From an archaeon (lineage in GTDB: Archaea; Iainarchaeota; Iainarchaeia; Iainarchaeales; CSSED10-239), in the NCBI GenBank assembly GCA_035400625.1, contig DAOMZT010000003.1:1-32000 (forward strand): 32,000 nucleotides of DNA. Reading direction: 5' to 3'. Positions 1,698-28,271 of the stretch are shown piece after piece. The notes below the pieces were generated by a model. That model did not search any database. It was not told the DNA's origin and was given only the letters and a program-made list of their open reading frames with translations. The stretch's first letter is position 1, and each line of letters begins with the position of its first letter. The translations under genes were made by a program, and so were the position numbers.

Positions 1698-3131
1698 ATG
1701 ATCAAGTCTAAAAAAAAGGCACAAGTTTCTGTAGAAGCACTAATTTTAGTTGGGATAATTGTTTTAGGTGCAACAATATTTGCATCAATGTATCTAAATA
1801 GAATAACACATGGTATAAATAGTTCAACGAAATTAGATGCTGGATTAAGCGATATTTTTAATGATCCATTTAACAATGGCACAAGTACAGATATAAATGA
1901 AGAACCTCATATAGATTCCGATATAATATTTAAAATCACTTTAGCTCTTGACCCTCCTAGTGCTAGTTCTATAAATCAACCTTTTAGAGTGGGTGTTACT
2001 TTAGATAACAATACAGGCATATCGGGAGCGAAAATTAATAAAGTTGAGATATATAAAGAGGCATTAACTGCCACCAATTGTACTTTGATTGGAGAAACAT
2101 CAACAACTCCTGGAACTTATGAAGTGAATATCCTATTTAACTCTAGCAATTTAAAAACTTTAGAATTTAGATGTTCTGCAGCAGGAACCTATAAAATCAA
2201 AGTATTTGCAGAAATACCTGGTACTGAATATTTAACAGATAATATAACACCAGATAAAATAATTACATCTGGACTTTCATCTTATGCTGTAAAAATCGAA
2301 GAACCAAGAAACGATACTTATTTGGTTTTAGGAGGTACTTCTAATTTTAAAGCAAGTGTTACACCTTCTCCAAATTCAGGAGAAACAGATCATTGCATGT
2401 GGTATGTTAATGAGAAACCAATTACCGGATCATCAACACCAAACACATGTAATTTAGAAAACATTTCATTGTCTGAACCACTTTTTACATTGGGCGAAAA
2501 TGAAATATCTGTTTTTGCAACCAGATATTCAAATGGAGTCATGATAAATAATGCAGAATCTAATGTGAAGGTAAAAATAATAAAGATGCCAGGAGCTAAC
2601 GAATTAATTTTATTTGCACCTAGAAAAGTTTTTGTAGGAGATAATTTTAATATAAAAGTATATGGCCTTAATCAAAGCCAAGTAGAAAATGCAGGAAGAA
2701 ATACATCTGATTTCTCATTTACTACAAATTGTGAAGTAACTAGCAATTCTTCTGTTTGTGGTTCTGCAATGATATATGCCACAACAGGAACTAGCACAAT
2801 ATATTTTTGTGATTATCCTGCAGTTTGTTTACGAGCTGCATATGATCAAACATCACCACACAATCCAAAAGATGTCACTGTAAGCTTAGCAGGCAGTACT
2901 CCTGCAAAGTTTTTCTCAGTATATGATTTGGCTTATTATTCAGGAAATTGTAATACTACAGCAACAGAGTATGGGATTTTGCAATCATGTGTTATGCCAT
3001 TTACTGGTGGTTTAGGATATAATGATGATTATTGGAGAGATAGTAGTTATGGCTTTTTAAAATCATACATTGATCAAGCATCAGAAACCAACACCAATAA
3101 TTACGGAAAAATAATAGGATATATTTCATAA
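1698..3131 (+). CDS. Extracellular protein of unknown family with an N-terminal archaeal class III (type IV pilin-like) signal peptide.
   Basis: The N-terminus is MIKSKKKA|QVSVEALILVGIIVLGATIFASMYL: a basic leader, K-A at -2/-1, Q at +1, E at +5, then a hydrophobic helix. This matches the QxSxE class III signal / DUF361-like pattern. The rest is rich in Cys and N-x-S/T with Ig-like beta-strand character, and there is no other TM segment. Confidence 0.6.
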   Translation: MIKSKKKAQVSVEALILVGIIVLGATIFASMYLNRITHGINSSTKLDAGLSDIFNDPFNNGTSTDINEEPHIDSDIIFKITLALDPPSASSINQPFRVGVTLDNNTGISGAKINKVEIYKEALTATNCTLIGETSTTPGTYEVNILFNSSNLKTLEFRCSAAGTYKIKVFAEIPGTEYLTDNITPDKIITSGLSSYAVKIEEPRNDTYLVLGGTSNFKASVTPSPNSGETDHCMWYVNEKPITGSSTPNTCNLENISLSEPLFTLGENEISVFATRYSNGVMINNAESNVKVKIIKMPGANELILFAPRKVFVGDNFNIKVYGLNQSQVENAGRNTSDFSFTTNCEVTSNSSVCGSAMIYATTGTSTIYFCDYPAVCLRAAYDQTSPHNPKDVTVSLAGSTPAKFFSVYDLAYYSGNCNTTATEYGILQSCVMPFTGGLGYNDDYWRDSSYGFLKSYIDQASETNTNNYGKIIGYIS

Positions 3132-3199: not shown

Positions 3200-5170
3200 A
3201 TGAAAATTTCAAAAATATTTTTAATTTTAGTGATAGGGATAATATCTTTAAATGTGGTATTTGCTGGACAAATAACCCAAAAAAATTATATGATAAAAGG
3301 AGATTTAACAATAAATGATTTATTGCATGATGCATGTGTAAACGGGAAATCATGGGCAGAATTATTATATTCAGATACTATATACATCCCAGATGATAGA
3401 CCTGCATCACAATTTTCTGGCTTAAATGATTTTTTTGATCAATTGTTTTTTGCAGAAGCAGCATCAAAATGTAATTTAGAAATTTATTCTCCATCAGGAA
3501 TCAAAATTAAAGAATATAAAAATCTTAGTGCAGAAGGAATAAAAGAAGGATTAAACTTAGGAATCGTAGTAGGTCCGATTAGTGATTCGGGTAATGATGT
3601 ACAGACTTTTATTGTAAAAATTAGAAAGCAGTCAAATTCTGCAGTTTTATTAGAGACCAATATAAAAACATTAAATCCAAGTTCAGGGATTGGAATATAT
3701 GCTGATTATATTAGAGATAAAAGCATAACACCTTCTAAATTAATCACACATAGCGTGGTAGATAGTGGTGTGTCAGATAATGGAAAAGTTTTATCTTGGG
3801 ATGGCATAAATAAAATAATGGATTGGGAATACATTGGCTCTGAAAATTTAGGTTCTGATATTATTCAATGGACACATTTGTCAGGTCCAGTTAAAGCATT
3901 AATAAGATCTAAACTTAGTAAAAGTATTTATACTGCAGATCCTGTTATAGAATATCCAGATGATTTTGAAGCATCTAATAAGTATTTACAGATACCAATT
4001 ACAGAAAACGGCACCACAACAATGTATTATTTACGATTATCAACTTTAAAGGAGCAACCTCCGATATTAAATATTGCTGAAGATTCTATACAGGCATTGA
4101 TTGGTCAAACAATTCATCATGTAGATGCAATAATAGACAATATTAAAAAAGATTCTGTATCTCCTAAAGCAGAGATAATTGGCAACCAAGGATATTATAA
4201 TATATTAGAAATTGTTGGGAGTCCTGAGATTGTTACCGAAGGGGGAGTAGAAAAAGCAAGAGTTTATTTTAAATGTAATGAACATAGTGCCTATGCTTCT
4301 GATCAATTAAAAATTAAAATTTCGGCAAACCCTTATTATCCTCAATACCAAGCAGTAAGTGATACTGTTGATGTAAATTGTTATAGTAATCAATCTTTAG
4401 CTCCATCAATCACAATATTAAATGAAGGTGTAATCATGATTGTTGGAAAATATTATCCTTTAGCATATACAGCCCATAATGTTGCATCTGTTGCGTGGAG
4501 TGCAATTCCATCACCACATTACACTTTTAATACTATTGATGGTGTCCAAAACATAAAATGTAATACTGTGGATAAGGATATATCTATAACAGCCACTGGA
4601 AATCCTAATTATAATTGGTTCCCTCCAGCTACAGACACATTTGGTGCAAGCTGTGTAGCAAGTAATGAAGGAGGCCAACCACCAGGAACTTGTTTCTTAG
4701 CAGGAACAAAAGTATATACCACAAATGGCTGGAAGAATATAGAAACAATAAAATCTGGAGAGAAAGTGTATTCATATTCAGATGATGGAAAGTTAGTAGA
4801 AACTAATGTTAAATCATTATTGATACACGATTATGTAAATGCAGGAGATAAATCTGTGAAGTTAGAATTATCAAATAACATTGTGTTATTTGTTACATCA
4901 AATCACGCATTTTATAGCCCAACAGAAAAAAAATACAAACAATTGAAAACCTTTAATATCGGAGATGATCTATTATACTACCATGTAACAAAAAATGCAT
5001 TCGAAAACGTACAAATAAGCAAAATTACTGAATTACCAAGCTTTAGCAAAGTTTATAATCTTGCATTAGACAAACCAAACAACTATCTTGCTGAAGGAAT
5101 TGTAGTACATAACCGCGAAAAAGAAGGAGAAGTAACAATTCCACAAGGTGGAGATGAAAGTTACCAATAA
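3200..5170 (+). CDS. Sec-secreted protein of unknown N-terminal family ending in a Hint (intein-like, BIL-type) autoprocessing domain.
   Basis: GGTGA lies 5 nt upstream of the ATG. The Sec-type signal peptide is MKISKIFLILVIGIISLNVVFA|GQ. The C-terminal 141 aa carry all the intein splicing blocks (see the Hint feature). Confidence 0.7.
   Translation: MKISKIFLILVIGIISLNVVFAGQITQKNYMIKGDLTINDLLHDACVNGKSWAELLYSDTIYIPDDRPASQFSGLNDFFDQLFFAEAASKCNLEIYSPSGIKIKEYKNLSAEGIKEGLNLGIVVGPISDSGNDVQTFIVKIRKQSNSAVLLETNIKTLNPSSGIGIYADYIRDKSITPSKLITHSVVDSGVSDNGKVLSWDGINKIMDWEYIGSENLGSDIIQWTHLSGPVKALIRSKLSKSIYTADPVIEYPDDFEASNKYLQIPITENGTTTMYYLRLSTLKEQPPILNIAEDSIQALIGQTIHHVDAIIDNIKKDSVSPKAEIIGNQGYYNILEIVGSPEIVTEGGVEKARVYFKCNEHSAYASDQLKIKISANPYYPQYQAVSDTVDVNCYSNQSLAPSITILNEGVIMIVGKYYPLAYTAHNVASVAWSAIPSPHYTFNTIDGVQNIKCNTVDKDISITATGNPNYNWFPPATDTFGASCVASNEGGQPPGTCFLAGTKVYTTNGWKNIETIKSGEKVYSYSDDGKLVETNVKSLLIHDYVNAGDKSVKLELSNNIVLFVTSNHAFYSPTEKKYKQLKTFNIGDDLLYYHVTKNAFENVQISKITELPSFSKVYNLALDKPNNYLAEGIVVHNREKEGEVTIPQGGDESYQ
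4691..5113 (+). other. Hint / mini-intein-like domain of 141 aa with no homing endonuclease.
   Basis: Block A is CFLAGTKVYTTNGWKNIETIKSGEKVYS, starting at Cys498. Block B (TxxH) is VTSNHAFYS. Blocks F/G are VYNLALDKPNNYLAEGIVVHN. The residue after the terminal Asn is Arg, not Cys/Ser/Thr, and only 18 more residues follow before the stop. Confidence 0.85.
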
Positions 5171-5206
5171 TTCTCCTTTTTCTCTTTTTCTTTTTTCCTT
5201 TCTATT
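5171..5206 (+). terminator. Candidate archaeal oligo-T terminator after the surface-protein gene cluster.
   Basis: The pyrimidine tract ttctcctttttctctttttcttttttcctttc, with several T4-T6 runs, starts immediately after the stop at 5168-5170. Confidence 0.35.
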
Positions 5207-5487
5207 TATAAACATTTTGATTCTATAAATATTCTATATTTATTATATTTTTAATGTGTCTAAAGGGTTGCTTAAGACATGTTAAAGAAAAAGACCTTTA
5301 TTTGACCTTCAATTTACAAACAAGCTTGTTTTGTTTGTTTTTTAGGCATTTAAACCACAATCTGTAGACTGTTTGTTGGTACCAAAATCAGTGGCGAAAA
5401 AGACACTAACCAACTCATAAATGCAGAAAAGATAAAATTATCTTTTTGCTATTTCTACGGATTTTAAAATATTAATAATTAAAAATG

Positions 5488-5497
5488 AAAATATAAT
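5488..5497 (+). promoter_or_regulatory. Candidate TATA-like element for the ribosomal superoperon. The first gene (uL3) has no Shine-Dalgarno motif, so its transcript may be leaderless or short-leadered.
   Basis: aaatataata lies about 19-28 nt upstream of the uL3 ATG at 5516, and no GGTGA motif precedes that ATG. AT-richness makes this weak. Confidence 0.2.
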
Positions 5498-5515
5498 ACA
5501 AAAAGCACGATTATT

Positions 5516-25580: not shown

Positions 25581-28271
25581 ATGGGTCAAAAATTAATTAG
25601 AAATAGAGAAACTTTATCTAAAAACAACAAACCACAAAAAACCGATTTAAAAAGAAAAGCACAAGCAACAATGGAAGTTTTGATTATAATGGGTGTTTTA
25701 GTTGTTGGAGTAATAATATTTGGAACTTTTTATTTTGGAAATATTGGTGAGAGATCAAGAGGTTCAGCAGGAATTTCTAGAGACATGAATGAATCTGAAT
25801 TAAAAACCAGTTATGATAAAGCGATAATCTATGATGGTGTTGATCAAGTATCAATGGATGGTGGTAGTAGCCATATTGTTCCAGATGATGGCGATAGCGA
25901 TGATGAAGATGGGGATGAGCCACCAGGTTCAGATGAAACTGGCCCTCCAACAATATTGGTATTTGATACAAGAAATACAAGTGATGGTTCTTCTGGGTCA
26001 CCCTCTCCTTCTTCTACTGGCAATCAAATCGGGTCGCCATTAGAAGACGAACCACTATTAGAAGAAATAGACACTTATAATTTTAATGTTGATTGGAATG
26101 ATGACACAGATAGTAATATCACTTTTTGGAGCCAACCAGAAGCAACCCCTACCAATTCAGGTCCTGGAAATCTCCCTTCTTCTGACATCAGTCAAATCAG
26201 GTTGCCATTAGAATCTTCAGGGACTTATAATTTTAATGTTGATTGGAATGATGGTACAAACAGCCACATTACTTCTTGGAACCAGCCAGAAGCAACACAT
26301 ACTTATTCAGAGCCAGGAATTTATGAAATAAAAATAACTGGAGTAATTAAAGGATTTCGTTTTAATAATAATGGCGACAGATTAAAACTTATAGAAATAA
26401 AAAACTGGGGCAACCTAAATCTAGGTAATAACGGTTATTATTTTTATGGTTGTTCTAATCTAGATATTACAGCAACAGATGTATTGGATTTAAATGGCAC
26501 AACAAATTTAAGAGGTTTATTTTATAAATGTAGTAGTTTAGTATTTAATGAAAGCATAAATTCATGGGATACCTCTAAAGTAACTAATATGGGGTCTATG
26601 TTTAATAAGGCTTCTAGTTTTAATCAACCATTGTCTTTTGATACATCTAATGTAATTAATATGTCTTTTATGTTTTCTACTGCTTCTAGTTTCAATCAAC
26701 CTTTAGATTTTAATACCTCTAGTGTAACAGATATGTTTGCGATGTTTCAGTGTGCGACCGATTTTAACCAGCCTTTATCTTCTTTTGATACTTCTAATGT
26801 AACTGATATGCATCATATGTTTGGATGTATTTATGATATGAGTTTCAATCAGTCCTTATCAAATTTTGACACCTCTAAAGTACGCAATATGTCTTATATG
26901 TTTCGTTATGCTTCTAGTTTCAACCAGTCTTTATCTAATTTCGATACCTCTAATGTAACTGATATGCAACATATGTTTTATCATGCATCTAGTTTCAACC
27001 AGTCTTTATCTAATTTCGATACTTCTAATGTGACCGATATGTGGGATATGTTTTTCCATGCATCTAGTTTCAACCAGCCTTTATCTTCTTTTGATACTTC
27101 TAAAGTAACTAATATGGGTGGTATGTTTTCAGGTGCAAGTAATTTCAACCAGTCTTTATCTTCTTTTGATACTTCTAAAGTAACTAATATGCGTGCTATG
27201 TTTTTTGGTGCACGTAGTTTCAATCAGCCATTATCTTCTTTTGATACTTCTAATGTAACTGATATGTATGGTATGTTTTCAGGTGCGAGTAGTTTCAATC
27301 AGTCTTTATCTTCTTTTGATACTTCTAATGTAACCGATATGCATTGGATGTTTAGAGATGCTTCCAGTTTCAACCAGCCCTTATCTTCTTTTAATACCTC
27401 TAATGTAACCGATATGTCTGAGATGTTTAGGAATGCATCAAGTTTCAATCATCCCTTAGATTTTAATACAACTAATGTAACCGATATGTCAGGTATGTTT
27501 TCTGATGCAACCAGTTTTAATCAGCCATTAGATTTTGATACTTCTAAAGTAACCGATATGAGTAGCATGTTTTTTGGGGTTACAAATTTCAAGTCGCCTA
27601 TAAATTTTGATACCTCTAATGTAACTGACATGTCCTACATGTTTTACAACACTTCAAGTTTCAATCACCCCTTAGATTTTAATACCTCTAATGTCACTAA
27701 TATGTCTTTTATGTTTTATGGTGCATCAAGTTTCAATCACCCTTTAGATTTTAACACCTCTAATGTTAATGGAATGACTGGTATGTTTTATGGCGCTTCC
27801 AGTTTTAATCAACCATTAGATTTTGATACTTCTAAAGTAACTAATATGGGGTCTATGTTTTTTAATGCAACAAATTTCAATCATCCATTGGATTTTGATA
27901 CTTCTAGTGTAAGATATATGAGTCGTATGTTTTTAGGTGCTTCCAGTTTTAATCAACCTTTAGATTTTAATACTTCTAATGTCACTGATATGTCTTTGAT
28001 GTTTTATAGTGCATCTAATTTCAATTCCACCTTGTCTTTTGATACATCTAATGTAACCGATATGTCTGCAATGTTTTTCCAAGCTAATAGTTTCAATCAT
28101 CCCTTAGATTTTAATGTCTCAAAAGTAACTAATATGGGAGGTATGTTTAATAATGCATCCAGTTTCAACCAAGACATTAGCTCATGGGATGTAGAAAATG
28201 TTACAAATTGGTCAGGAATATTTACTAATTGCCCAATACAAACAGACTATAAACCTGAAAAGTTTAGATAA
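25581..28271 (+). CDS. Large surface protein of 896 aa. Its parts are a class III (type IV pilin-like) signal peptide, an acidic/Ser-Pro linker, a duplicated beta-rich module, and about 23 tandem DUF285/BspA-type leucine-rich-like repeats.
   Basis: The N-terminus is ...DLKRKA|QATMEVLIIMGVLVVGVIIFGTFYF, with K-A at -2/-1, Q at +1 and E at +5. The repeat consensus is F(D/N)TS(N/K)VT(D/N)MxxMFxxASSFNQ(P/S)L(S/D), characteristic of DUF285 (PF03382)/BspA-family proteins. No C-terminal TM or sorting signal is present. Confidence 0.8.
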   Translation: MGQKLIRNRETLSKNNKPQKTDLKRKAQATMEVLIIMGVLVVGVIIFGTFYFGNIGERSRGSAGISRDMNESELKTSYDKAIIYDGVDQVSMDGGSSHIVPDDGDSDDEDGDEPPGSDETGPPTILVFDTRNTSDGSSGSPSPSSTGNQIGSPLEDEPLLEEIDTYNFNVDWNDDTDSNITFWSQPEATPTNSGPGNLPSSDISQIRLPLESSGTYNFNVDWNDGTNSHITSWNQPEATHTYSEPGIYEIKITGVIKGFRFNNNGDRLKLIEIKNWGNLNLGNNGYYFYGCSNLDITATDVLDLNGTTNLRGLFYKCSSLVFNESINSWDTSKVTNMGSMFNKASSFNQPLSFDTSNVINMSFMFSTASSFNQPLDFNTSSVTDMFAMFQCATDFNQPLSSFDTSNVTDMHHMFGCIYDMSFNQSLSNFDTSKVRNMSYMFRYASSFNQSLSNFDTSNVTDMQHMFYHASSFNQSLSNFDTSNVTDMWDMFFHASSFNQPLSSFDTSKVTNMGGMFSGASNFNQSLSSFDTSKVTNMRAMFFGARSFNQPLSSFDTSNVTDMYGMFSGASSFNQSLSSFDTSNVTDMHWMFRDASSFNQPLSSFNTSNVTDMSEMFRNASSFNHPLDFNTTNVTDMSGMFSDATSFNQPLDFDTSKVTDMSSMFFGVTNFKSPINFDTSNVTDMSYMFYNTSSFNHPLDFNTSNVTNMSFMFYGASSFNHPLDFNTSNVNGMTGMFYGASSFNQPLDFDTSKVTNMGSMFFNATNFNHPLDFDTSSVRYMSRMFLGASSFNQPLDFNTSNVTDMSLMFYSASNFNSTLSFDTSNVTDMSAMFFQANSFNHPLDFNVSKVTNMGGMFNNASSFNQDISSWDVENVTNWSGIFTNCPIQTDYKPEKFR
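26005..26311 (+). repeat. In-frame tandem duplication inside the repeat-protein gene (copy A about 26005-26171, copy B about 26172-26311).
   Basis: There is a 31-nt perfect identity, acttataattttaatgttgattggaatgatg, at 26073-26103 and 26223-26253. The flanks are similar (…caaatc.gg.t.gccattagaa…, …ccagaagcaac…). At protein level the copies read YNFNVDWNDDTDSNITFWSQPEATPT and YNFNVDWNDGTNSHITSWNQPEATHT. Confidence 0.85.
26565..28235 (+). repeat. Array of about 23 tandem coding repeats (DUF285/BspA-type) with a 72-75 nt period. The central units at about 26860-27400 are the most similar at nucleotide level.
   Basis: Visible periodic recurrence of ...agtttcaa(c/t)cag(c/t)ctttatct(t/a)(c/a)ttt(t/c)gata c(t/c)tctaa(t/a)gtaac(t/c)(g/a)atatg.... 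Confidence 0.9.

Follow-up and report, generated by a model that had tools for sequence, protein, structure and literature searches.

An intein-like Hint domain at the C-terminus of a predicted secreted protein encoded beside an archaeal ribosomal protein operon

The window analysed here, 32,000 nucleotides (nt) of contig DAOMZT010000003.1 with a GC content of ~32%, contains a gene whose 3′ end encodes a Hint domain. This gene (the Hint gene) lies directly upstream of an archaeal ribosomal protein operon (L3, L4, L23, L2 and so on). The operon also contains S4e, L32e, L19e, SUI1 and a SecY with a Sec61-type plug, and because of these genes the archaeal host named in the original prediction, which was made from the sequence alone, is supported; a DPANN-type lineage would be a guess. 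The parts of the Hint gene and its upstream neighbour are listed in Table 1.

The Hint gene and the class of its C-terminal domain

The encoded protein is ordered as a signal peptide-like N-terminus, a conserved N-terminal domain, a variable middle, immunoglobulin (Ig)-like beta-sandwiches, a linker, the Hint domain and a tail. The Cys498 codon begins at nt 4691, and the TAA stop ends at nt 5170. The intein blocks CFLAGTK (amino acids [aa] 498-504), TSNH and VVHN (aa 635-638, nt 5102-5113), the Arg at +1 and the 18-residue tail, from which a mini-intein-like domain had first been recognised, were all present and lay exactly where they had been placed. Arg639, at +1, is non-nucleophilic. Thr497, the last residue of the linker, occupies -1, and Thr497-Cys498 is the predicted scissile bond. 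The tail is disordered in the AlphaFold2 model from aa 640 to 656 (predicted local distance difference test score, pLDDT, <50). It carries Lys641 (codon at nt 5120-5122) inside the semi-conserved motif HN-[DR]-x-K-x-G-[DE], which is common to the relatives P0002, P0003, P0006, P0007, P0008 and P0016. Neither a coding continuation nor a small open reading frame exists after the stop codon of the gene, and a profile built from C-terminal Hints found no second Hint in the six frames of the window.

Profile searches placed the domain in the Hint superfamily, as had been expected. Pfam PT-HINT (PF07591) scored 40.1 bits with the whole protein (gathering cut-off 27.7, E=5.4e-10) and 43.9 bits with the domain alone, and NCBIfam intein_Cterm (TIGR01443) passed with 27.1 against a cut-off of 15.6. 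Three further profiles stayed below threshold: Pfam Intein_splicing (PF14890) at 29.8 bits (35.4 with the domain alone; cut-off 35.8), Pfam Hint (PF01079) at 24.5 bits (28.0 with the domain alone; cut-off 29.7) and Pfam Hint_2, a weak match. When all PDB sequences were searched with phmmer, only bacterial intein-like (BIL) domains were returned, namely 6Y75/6TMM and 2LWY at E ~5e-5. The AlphaFold2 model of aa 498-638 had block-mean pLDDT values mostly of 81-92 and matched BIL, intein and Hedgehog Hint structures in Foldseek with target-normalised TM-scores of 0.72-0.87. The top rank was taken by BIL2 of Tetrahymena (6Y75/6TMM, E=1e-9), followed by the Clostridium thermocellum BIL 2LWY. The top BIL matches spanned E values of 1e-9 to 5e-9; mini-inteins and the Hedgehog Hint 1AT0 ranked below them, and 6TYY was also matched.

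An A-type BIL is recognised as a mini-domain with blocks A, B, F and G in ~130-160 aa without a homing endonuclease, and the C-terminal His-Asn, as in inteins, separates type A from type B (PMC4031507). The window domain is a mini Hint of 141 aa with intein-type blocks and without a homing endonuclease; it has Cys1, the block-B Thr-x-x-His and the C-terminal His-Asn, and its +1 residue is not Cys, Ser or Thr. Its host is a variable, non-conserved protein, as seen from the ratio of nonsynonymous to synonymous divergence (omega 0.23-0.58), from a Hint-less orthologue and from the diverse N-terminal domains of relatives. The domain is thus a mini Hint of the A-type BIL / PT-HINT kind and shows every sequence-level feature of an A-type BIL. 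The likeness to A-type BILs noticed at the outset is borne out by these residues and by the BILs being the closest PDB matches.

The BIL of C. thermocellum (2LWY) is likewise a mini Hint of ~140 aa that starts with Cys-Phe-x-A-G-T, has T-x-x-H and His-Asn, lacks a nucleophile at +1 and an endonuclease, and belongs to A-type BILs, which sit in variable, non-essential and often secreted host proteins. The two were related by phmmer at E=5.5e-5 and by Foldseek with a target-normalised TM-score of 0.84 and a root-mean-square deviation of 2.1 Å. Unlike it, the domain described here is known from sequence, shares ~23% identity with it, belongs to an archaeal host and lies at the extreme C-terminus with 18 residues after it. 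The BIL2 domain of Tetrahymena thermophila BUBL1 (6TMM, 6Y75) was the top match both by sequence (E=5e-5) and by structure. It resolves the thioester at its N-junction by the epsilon-amine of a Lys to give an isopeptide (PMC8616854), and the window protein has a Lys at +3. However, BIL2 lies between two ubiquitin-like domains of a eukaryotic polyubiquitin-like locus and uses a Lys of the folded downstream ubiquitin-like domain, whereas in the window protein a secreted cargo of 475 aa precedes the Hint and a disordered 18-mer follows it.

The N-terminus of the protein (MKISKIFLILVIGIISLNVVFA, followed by GQ) looks by inspection like the n/h/c arrangement of a signal peptide, likely to be cleaved after V-F-A; alternatively, it may be an uncleaved signal anchor. 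The claim that the protein is Sec-secreted therefore stands as far as this layout and the near-invariance of the N-terminus carry it, and is loosened by the possible anchor. No C-terminal membrane anchor is present in the sequence of the mature protein. A Pfam scan of aa 1-497 gave no match. The model of the N-terminal domain had an overall mean pLDDT of 75.4, with ordered blocks at 72-91 and a loop (model residues 39-62) below 50, and Foldseek against the PDB found no significant structural relative for it (best E=0.065). The stretch between this domain and the Ig-like sandwiches is variable and poorly modelled, and in Foldseek the middle of the cargo matched only generic tandem Ig/cadherin-like sandwiches.

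Table 1. Positions in the window of the Hint gene, its parts and the gene upstream
Feature	Position (nt)	Strand	Basis or remark
Upstream neighbour, 477 aa, with prepilin-like class III signal peptide	1698..3131	+	Pfam Class_IIIsignal, sub-threshold
Whole Hint gene	3200..5170	+	656 codons plus TAA
Signal-peptide-like N-terminus, aa 1-22 (MKISKIFLILVIGIISLNVVFA)	3200..3265	+	By inspection; near-invariance in homologues
Conserved N-terminal domain, aa 24-170	3269..3709	+	Conservation; invariant Cys46 and Cys91
Fast-evolving beta-sandwich / Ig-like region, ~aa 256-488	3965..4663	+	Strand-rich AlphaFold2 model; Foldseek; omega
Flexible Gly/Pro linker NEGGQPPGT, aa 489-497	4664..4690	+	pLDDT <50 at aa 489-496; sequence
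Hint domain, aa 498-638 (141 aa)	4691..5113	+	PT-HINT match, PDB matches, omega
Cys498 codon, predicted block A nucleophile (Cys1) for N-S acyl shift	4691..4693	+	Invariant in alignment of 27 Hints
Block B, Thr566-Ser-Asn-His569	4895..4906	+	Thr and His invariant in alignment of 27 Hints
Block G, His637-Asn638, predicted Asn cyclisation site for C-terminal cleavage	5108..5113	+	Invariant in alignment of 27 Hints; intein_Cterm match
Hydrophilic 18-aa tail REKEGEVTIPQGGDESYQ, aa 639-656	5114..5167	+	Sequence; pLDDT <50

Relatives, selection and the genomic slot

When 1.8 billion cluster representatives were searched exhaustively with phmmer, 3581 relatives were obtained at E<1e-3, of which 329 had E<1e-10. 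The word-indexed homologue search returned nothing with the Hint alone, which we ascribe to a limitation of the index because so many relatives were found exhaustively. The word-indexed database held three full-length Hint-bearing relatives with 60-100% identity (P0001-P0003) and two proteins (P0004 and P0005) that keep the signal peptide and the N-terminal domain and stop where the Hint would start. The nearest relatives in the exhaustive search (P0006, P0007, P0008, P0016 and P0084) have a signal peptide, an N-terminal domain with 29-37% identity to that of the window protein, a C-terminal Hint with ~40-71% identity and tails of 17-34 aa; the neighbour gene and the T-rich spacer of the locus recur with them. 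This conservation indicates that the architecture of signal peptide, N-terminal domain, C-terminal Hint and short tail is old. The only name that these proteins carry in the source is 'hypothetical protein'.

The arrangement proved not to be unusual. Architecture was counted in the 135 top-ranking relatives whose final Hint is complete; His-Asn is followed by at most 40 residues in 57 of them and by at most 25 in 49, in both bacteria and archaea. A terminal Hint is thus less exceptional than first supposed and of a known, widespread kind. As early as 2008, Bürglin, and Dassa and Pietrokovski, had drawn attention to secreted proteins of bacteria that end in a Hint-like domain (PMC2362128). By description, these proteins likewise start with a signal peptide, contain cysteine in their N-terminal region and have the Hint at the C-terminus; the window domain, a clear BIL-A / PT-HINT member, is set beside them on that description. 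At +1 the same 135 relatives have K in 73 cases, A in 13, D in 12, R in 8 and G in 7, with C, S or T in just 7.

In an alignment of 27 diverse C-terminal Hints, Cys1, the Thr and His of block B and the terminal His-Asn were invariant, and so were four further positions (Phe2, an Ile, a Val and a Tyr). The N-terminal parts of relatives of this type are mutually unrelated (GLUG/M26-like, CHB_HEX_C_1/Fn3_assoc, DUF4215, PKD). Signal peptides or lipoboxes open most of the N-termini, and a flexible Gly-rich linker always precedes the Hint. A scan of GTDB species genomes detected members of the family in many bacterial phyla and in archaea, and no close orthologue (best 44% identity). By genome label, archaeal terminal Hints with short tails occurred in Woesearchaeota (L025, L031, L078), Micrarchaeota (L056) and Thermoplasmatales (L032). 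A useful internal control came from canonical inteins in helicase-like and similar genes, which the same scan also detected: every one of them carries C, S or T at +1.

A Lys lies at +1 to +4 after His-Asn in 107 of 129 BIL-like relatives, where ~25% would be expected from composition (binomial p=2e-42), vs 1 of 19 canonical inteins from the genome scan (Fisher p=3e-11). Almost all tails of 1-5 residues carry a Lys (K, KT, KL, TK, KI, GGTK and so on), and the corresponding residue of the window protein is Lys641. A secreted cargo followed by a Hint and a short Lys-containing tail is a common and so far unannotated architecture. The enrichment of Lys suggests a chemical role for the flank residue, like that of the Lys in the isopeptide reaction of BIL2.

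In a large class of related proteins, 2-5 Hints form a head-to-tail tandem array with HN-KGG(G)-CF linkers between consecutive domains, and the array precedes a Gly/Ser/His-rich stretch of 400-500 aa (P0009-P0012, P0017-P0022 and others; loci L011, L013, L021, L023, L029, L033, L045 and L050). The genomes concerned are labelled Sedimentisphaerales, Planctomycetota, Verrucomicrobia and Lentisphaerae.

Selection was estimated between orthologues by the Nei-Gojobori method. The Hint had omega of 0.10-0.16 at a synonymous divergence (dS) of 0.43-0.52, and the neighbouring rpL3 gene 0.095 at 0.39. Higher omega values were obtained for the N-terminal 170 aa (0.23-0.39; dS 0.53-0.96), for aa 171-497 (0.48-0.58; dS 0.75-1.07) and for the few codons of the tail (0.3-0.8; dS 0.91-1.16). 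The Hint is under purifying selection at the protein level as strong as that on ribosomal protein L3, and the host protein outside it evolves fast. The dS of the Hint is at least that of rpL3, so we rejected recent horizontal spread as an explanation of its conservation. At the DNA level, the window and the Hint-bearing locus L001 share 72% identity in the gene body and 88.8% from nt 4670, ~20 nt ahead of the Hint start, through the ribosomal protein operon.

Two minor observations concern members of the 90% cluster of P0002. The Hint of P0163 resembles the window allele in its first half (…NAGDKSVKLELSNNIVLFVTSNH) and P0002 in its second half, which suggests recombination inside it. P0161 has a frameshift within the Hint and is either a pseudogene or an assembly error.

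The Hint gene occupies a slot that is also filled by Hint-less orthologues. The order of a 497-aa neighbour gene, the Hint-slot gene, a spacer of ~350 nt and rpl3 is common to P0003 and P0004, and two metagenomes each yielded both the Hint-bearing P0002 and the Hint-less P0004. The gene of P0004 lies at 7323-8564 in L002 and 2404-3645 in L003, and the P0004 and P0005 proteins have 391-413 aa. Between the window and the Hint-less locus, DNA identity is 73-79% upstream and 89% downstream, and most of the gene body is without detectable similarity. The similarity breaks off ~140 nt inside the gene and returns precisely with the stop codon; the gene body thus behaves as a replaceable cassette. No similarity to the Hint was detectable in the last codons of the Hint-less orthologue in L002; MAFFT paired 'ELVVN' with 'GIVVHN', which as a Hint remnant was dismissed as too short to mean anything. 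The N-terminal domains of P0004 and P0005 have 53-55% identity to that of the window protein, above the 32-40% of the five Hint-bearing relatives P0006, P0007, P0008, P0016 and P0084 in this comparison. Since the Hint-less proteins are closer than these distant Hint-bearing ones, we infer by parsimony that the family originally had the Hint and that the P0004/P0005 lineage lost it.

Possible reactions of the domain

We favour the reading, with a probability of roughly 70%, that the last 159 codons encode a functional, single-turnover self-processing module of the A-type BIL / PT-HINT kind. Its cargo is best read as a secreted, rapidly diverging, adhesin-like archaeal surface protein. Invariant catalytic residues and strong selection make an active domain likely, and together with the fold they point to both an N-S acyl shift and Asn cleavage; the domain is real and probably active. 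According to PMC4031507 and PMC7664689, in which the work on A-type BILs is summarised (Amitai et al. 2003; Dassa et al. 2004; Aranko et al. 2013), these domains form an N-terminal thioester and cleave at the C-terminal Asn, yielding mainly cleavage products, and can also splice when the freed amine of the C-flank attacks the thioester.

In the proposed course of events, Cys498, helped by Thr566 and His569, would attack the Thr497-Cys498 bond after export and folding, and the N-S acyl shift would load the N-terminal protein of ~475 aa onto a thioester. Asn638, helped by His637, would cyclise to a succinimide and sever the 18-aa tail. Resolution of the thioester would then detach the Hint from the mature protein of ~475 aa. 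Most likely this would occur by hydrolysis, which is plain release, or by aminolysis by the tail as in A-type BIL splicing, with the alpha-amine of Arg639 after C-cleavage or the epsilon-amine of Lys641 as candidates. Water or tail amines fit best because the His-Asn is retained and the Lys signature persists even with tails of 1-3 residues; transfer of the thioester to a foreign amine appears less likely than either. The conclusion in the original prediction that canonical splicing is impossible holds, +1 being Arg639, but BIL-type ligation of the tail by a freed C-flank amine or a Lys could still take place (PMC4031507, PMC8616854). The outcomes put forward in that prediction, namely release of the N-terminal domain, its covalent attachment and surface-protein heterogeneity, are hypotheses that the present analysis does not separate.

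Several points weigh against active self-processing in this form. The Hint module is accessory, and it is dispensable in that sister lineages fill the same slot with the Hint-less P0004 and P0005. Beyond x-K-x-G-[DE] the tail is poorly conserved, and it is disordered in the model, so that a specific role for it is uncertain. Strong conservation shows constraint and is silent on which reaction was selected, and the DNA conservation between nearest neighbours could partly reflect recombination. The residue at -1 is Thr497, while Gly is found at 161 of 271 Hint starts of the family.

The thioester at Thr497 might instead be resolved in trans by an amine or hydroxyl of another molecule, which would anchor or cross-link the surface protein in a sortase- or Hedgehog-like way. 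Candidate acceptors would be a Lys of the pilin-like neighbour, an S-layer or host-cell surface protein, a lipid or a glycan. We regard such covalent attachment as unlikely, although BIL2, the closest match in sequence and fold, catalyses ATP-free transfer of its upstream polypeptide to Lys residues of varied substrates (PMC8616854). The missing membrane anchor and the conserved neighbour with its sub-threshold class III signal peptide match would suit attachment, and so would the modelled position of the Hint, which caps an Ig-like stalk and is joined to it by a flexible linker. However, just 18 disordered residues and no acceptor-recognition region follow the Hint, the Hint-less orthologues retain the same neighbour gene, A-type BILs mainly cleave in vitro (PMC4031507, PMC7664689), and nothing in the present analysis points to an acceptor. 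A more elaborate form seems a little more doubtful still: the terminal Hint as a single-use, ATP-independent ligase that presents the Thr497 thioester at the tip of a surface protein and transfers this protein to a Lys in trans. We would give the same low odds to the acceptor being the pilin-like neighbour, the S-layer or a host cell, and to the near-universal Lys after His-Asn acting as a default acceptor in cis that quenches unused thioesters.

The other four readings assign the domain to different classes or deny it catalysis. A membrane lipid could attack the thioester as in Hedgehog/Hog proteins and so lipidate and anchor the N-terminal domain. The layout of signal peptide, cargo and C-terminal Hint starting x-Cys-Phe is the same, the predicted thioester chemistry is shared, and 1AT0 (target-normalised TM-score 0.79) and 6TYY are among the fold matches. 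The Hedgehog likeness seen at the outset is thus kept for the thioester step, but it fails further on: in place of a sterol- or adduct-recognition region of ~60-70 aa there are only the 18 disordered hydrophilic residues (pLDDT <50), the Pfam Hint profile stays under its cut-off, and the invariant C-terminal His-Asn is an intein/BIL feature. The terminal His-Asn is not known to play a part in Hedgehog-type autoprocessing. The cleavage motif is Thr-Cys-Phe here vs Gly-Cys-Phe in Hedgehog, Gly being the commonest -1 residue in the relatives. A lipid transferase is improbable. Slightly more improbable is a PT-HINT relic left after loss of a C-terminal toxin. In polymorphic toxin and contact-dependent inhibition systems the PT-HINT domain, a predicted autoproteolytic peptidase of secreted or surface proteins, is flanked by pre-toxin domains on one side and a C-terminal toxin on the other, an immunity gene lies alongside, and the domain is regarded as releasing the toxin (PMC3113570). 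PT-HINT is also the best Pfam family here, and many relatives have long post-Hint regions. But neither a toxin nor an immunity gene is present here, and in all loci the stop codon is followed directly by the spacer and the ribosomal protein operon, without a downstream open reading frame or immunity-like gene. The tail and its HN-[DR]-x-K-x-G-[DE] motif are kept in homologues with ~30% identical N-terminal domains, the Hint is selected as strongly as rpL3, and the terminal layout recurs in 57 of 135 relatives. The conserved tail, the strong selection on the Hint and the lack of a toxin or immunity gene largely refute this reading. A selfish canonical intein, or its remnant, with splicing itself out as its sole role has an equally slim chance. 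Blocks A, B and G can be recognised, the intein_Cterm profile passes its cut-off and many mini-inteins are among the Foldseek matches, and yet +1 is Arg instead of Cys, Ser or Thr, the protein ends 18 aa later, Intein_splicing (29.8-35.4 bits) misses its cut-off, and the Hint ends a fast-evolving, dispensable surface protein and is not in a conserved site of an essential one. Without a homing endonuclease there would be no selfish route to the observed Hint conservation. A catalytically silent structural or binding domain with a Hint fold is hardly credible. Conservation is by itself no proof of catalysis, but the catalytic positions (Cys1, Thr, His and His-Asn) are among the few that never vary across distant relatives, and the Hint always stands behind a flexible Gly-rich linker.

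What BIL-type Hints are for has been a standing question since their description; the known part is their chemistry in vitro, which comprises cleavage, amine-mediated splicing and the Lys isopeptide. This family offers a clean natural test case, with one cargo, one Hint and a vestigial Lys-containing tail; orthologues lacking the Hint occur naturally in the same slot, and the Hint is selected as strongly as a ribosomal protein. 'Bacterial' intein-like domains are also used by archaea, in genomes labelled Woesearchaeota, Micrarchaeota, Thermoplasmatales and others, and among the papers searched none connected such domains with surface proteins of archaea or with DPANN. If the Hint only removed itself, it would be an ordinary maturation device. 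Resolution in trans would add a new means by which archaea attach proteins covalently to surfaces, and with a ligase a small archaeon would have a sortase-like system of covalent attachment or adhesion.

Neighbouring genes and the downstream spacer

The locus, with the upstream neighbour gene and a T-rich downstream spacer, is kept in L001, L088 and L089. The match of the 477-aa neighbour to Pfam Class_IIIsignal is weak (18.4 bits, below the cut-off of 23.7). A homologue of this protein with 32-60% identity lies upstream in L001, L002, L088 and L089, Hint-less loci included; it is a conserved neighbour and, as to the Hint gene, context only. The contigs of P0002, P0006 and P0007 (L005-L008, L088 and L089) are mostly ~3.1-3.4 kb and break in the flanking genes, which fits assembly breaks caused by strain-level hypervariability at the Hint locus. 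Longer contigs carry P0003 (21.5 kb) and members of the P0002 cluster (15-28 kb).

The spacer of 346 nt between the Hint gene and rpl3 (window 5171-5515) is ~90-100% conserved even where the gene upstream is unalignable, with counterparts at 4593-4953 in L001 and 8565-8916 in L002 and also in L003 and L005. Its indels are not multiples of three; it is conserved and non-coding. It opens with a T-run, which is followed by a TATA-like box, TTTATAAA, at ~5205-5212. A hairpin at ~5255-5290 shows three compensatory pairs between the window and other loci, and the RNAalifold consensus is -49.9 kcal/mol. Rfam gave nothing at the gathering threshold for the spacer. These features suggest that it may be a structured leader or a small RNA of the ribosomal protein operon.

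Besides the 477-aa neighbour, one more secreted or surface protein is encoded upstream of the Hint gene (18-1601) and has CHB_HEX_C_1/Fn3_assoc repeats. At 25581-28271, a further large repeat protein of 896 aa has ~10 DUF285 repeats (Pfam E=3.5e-261) and is probably surface-exposed.

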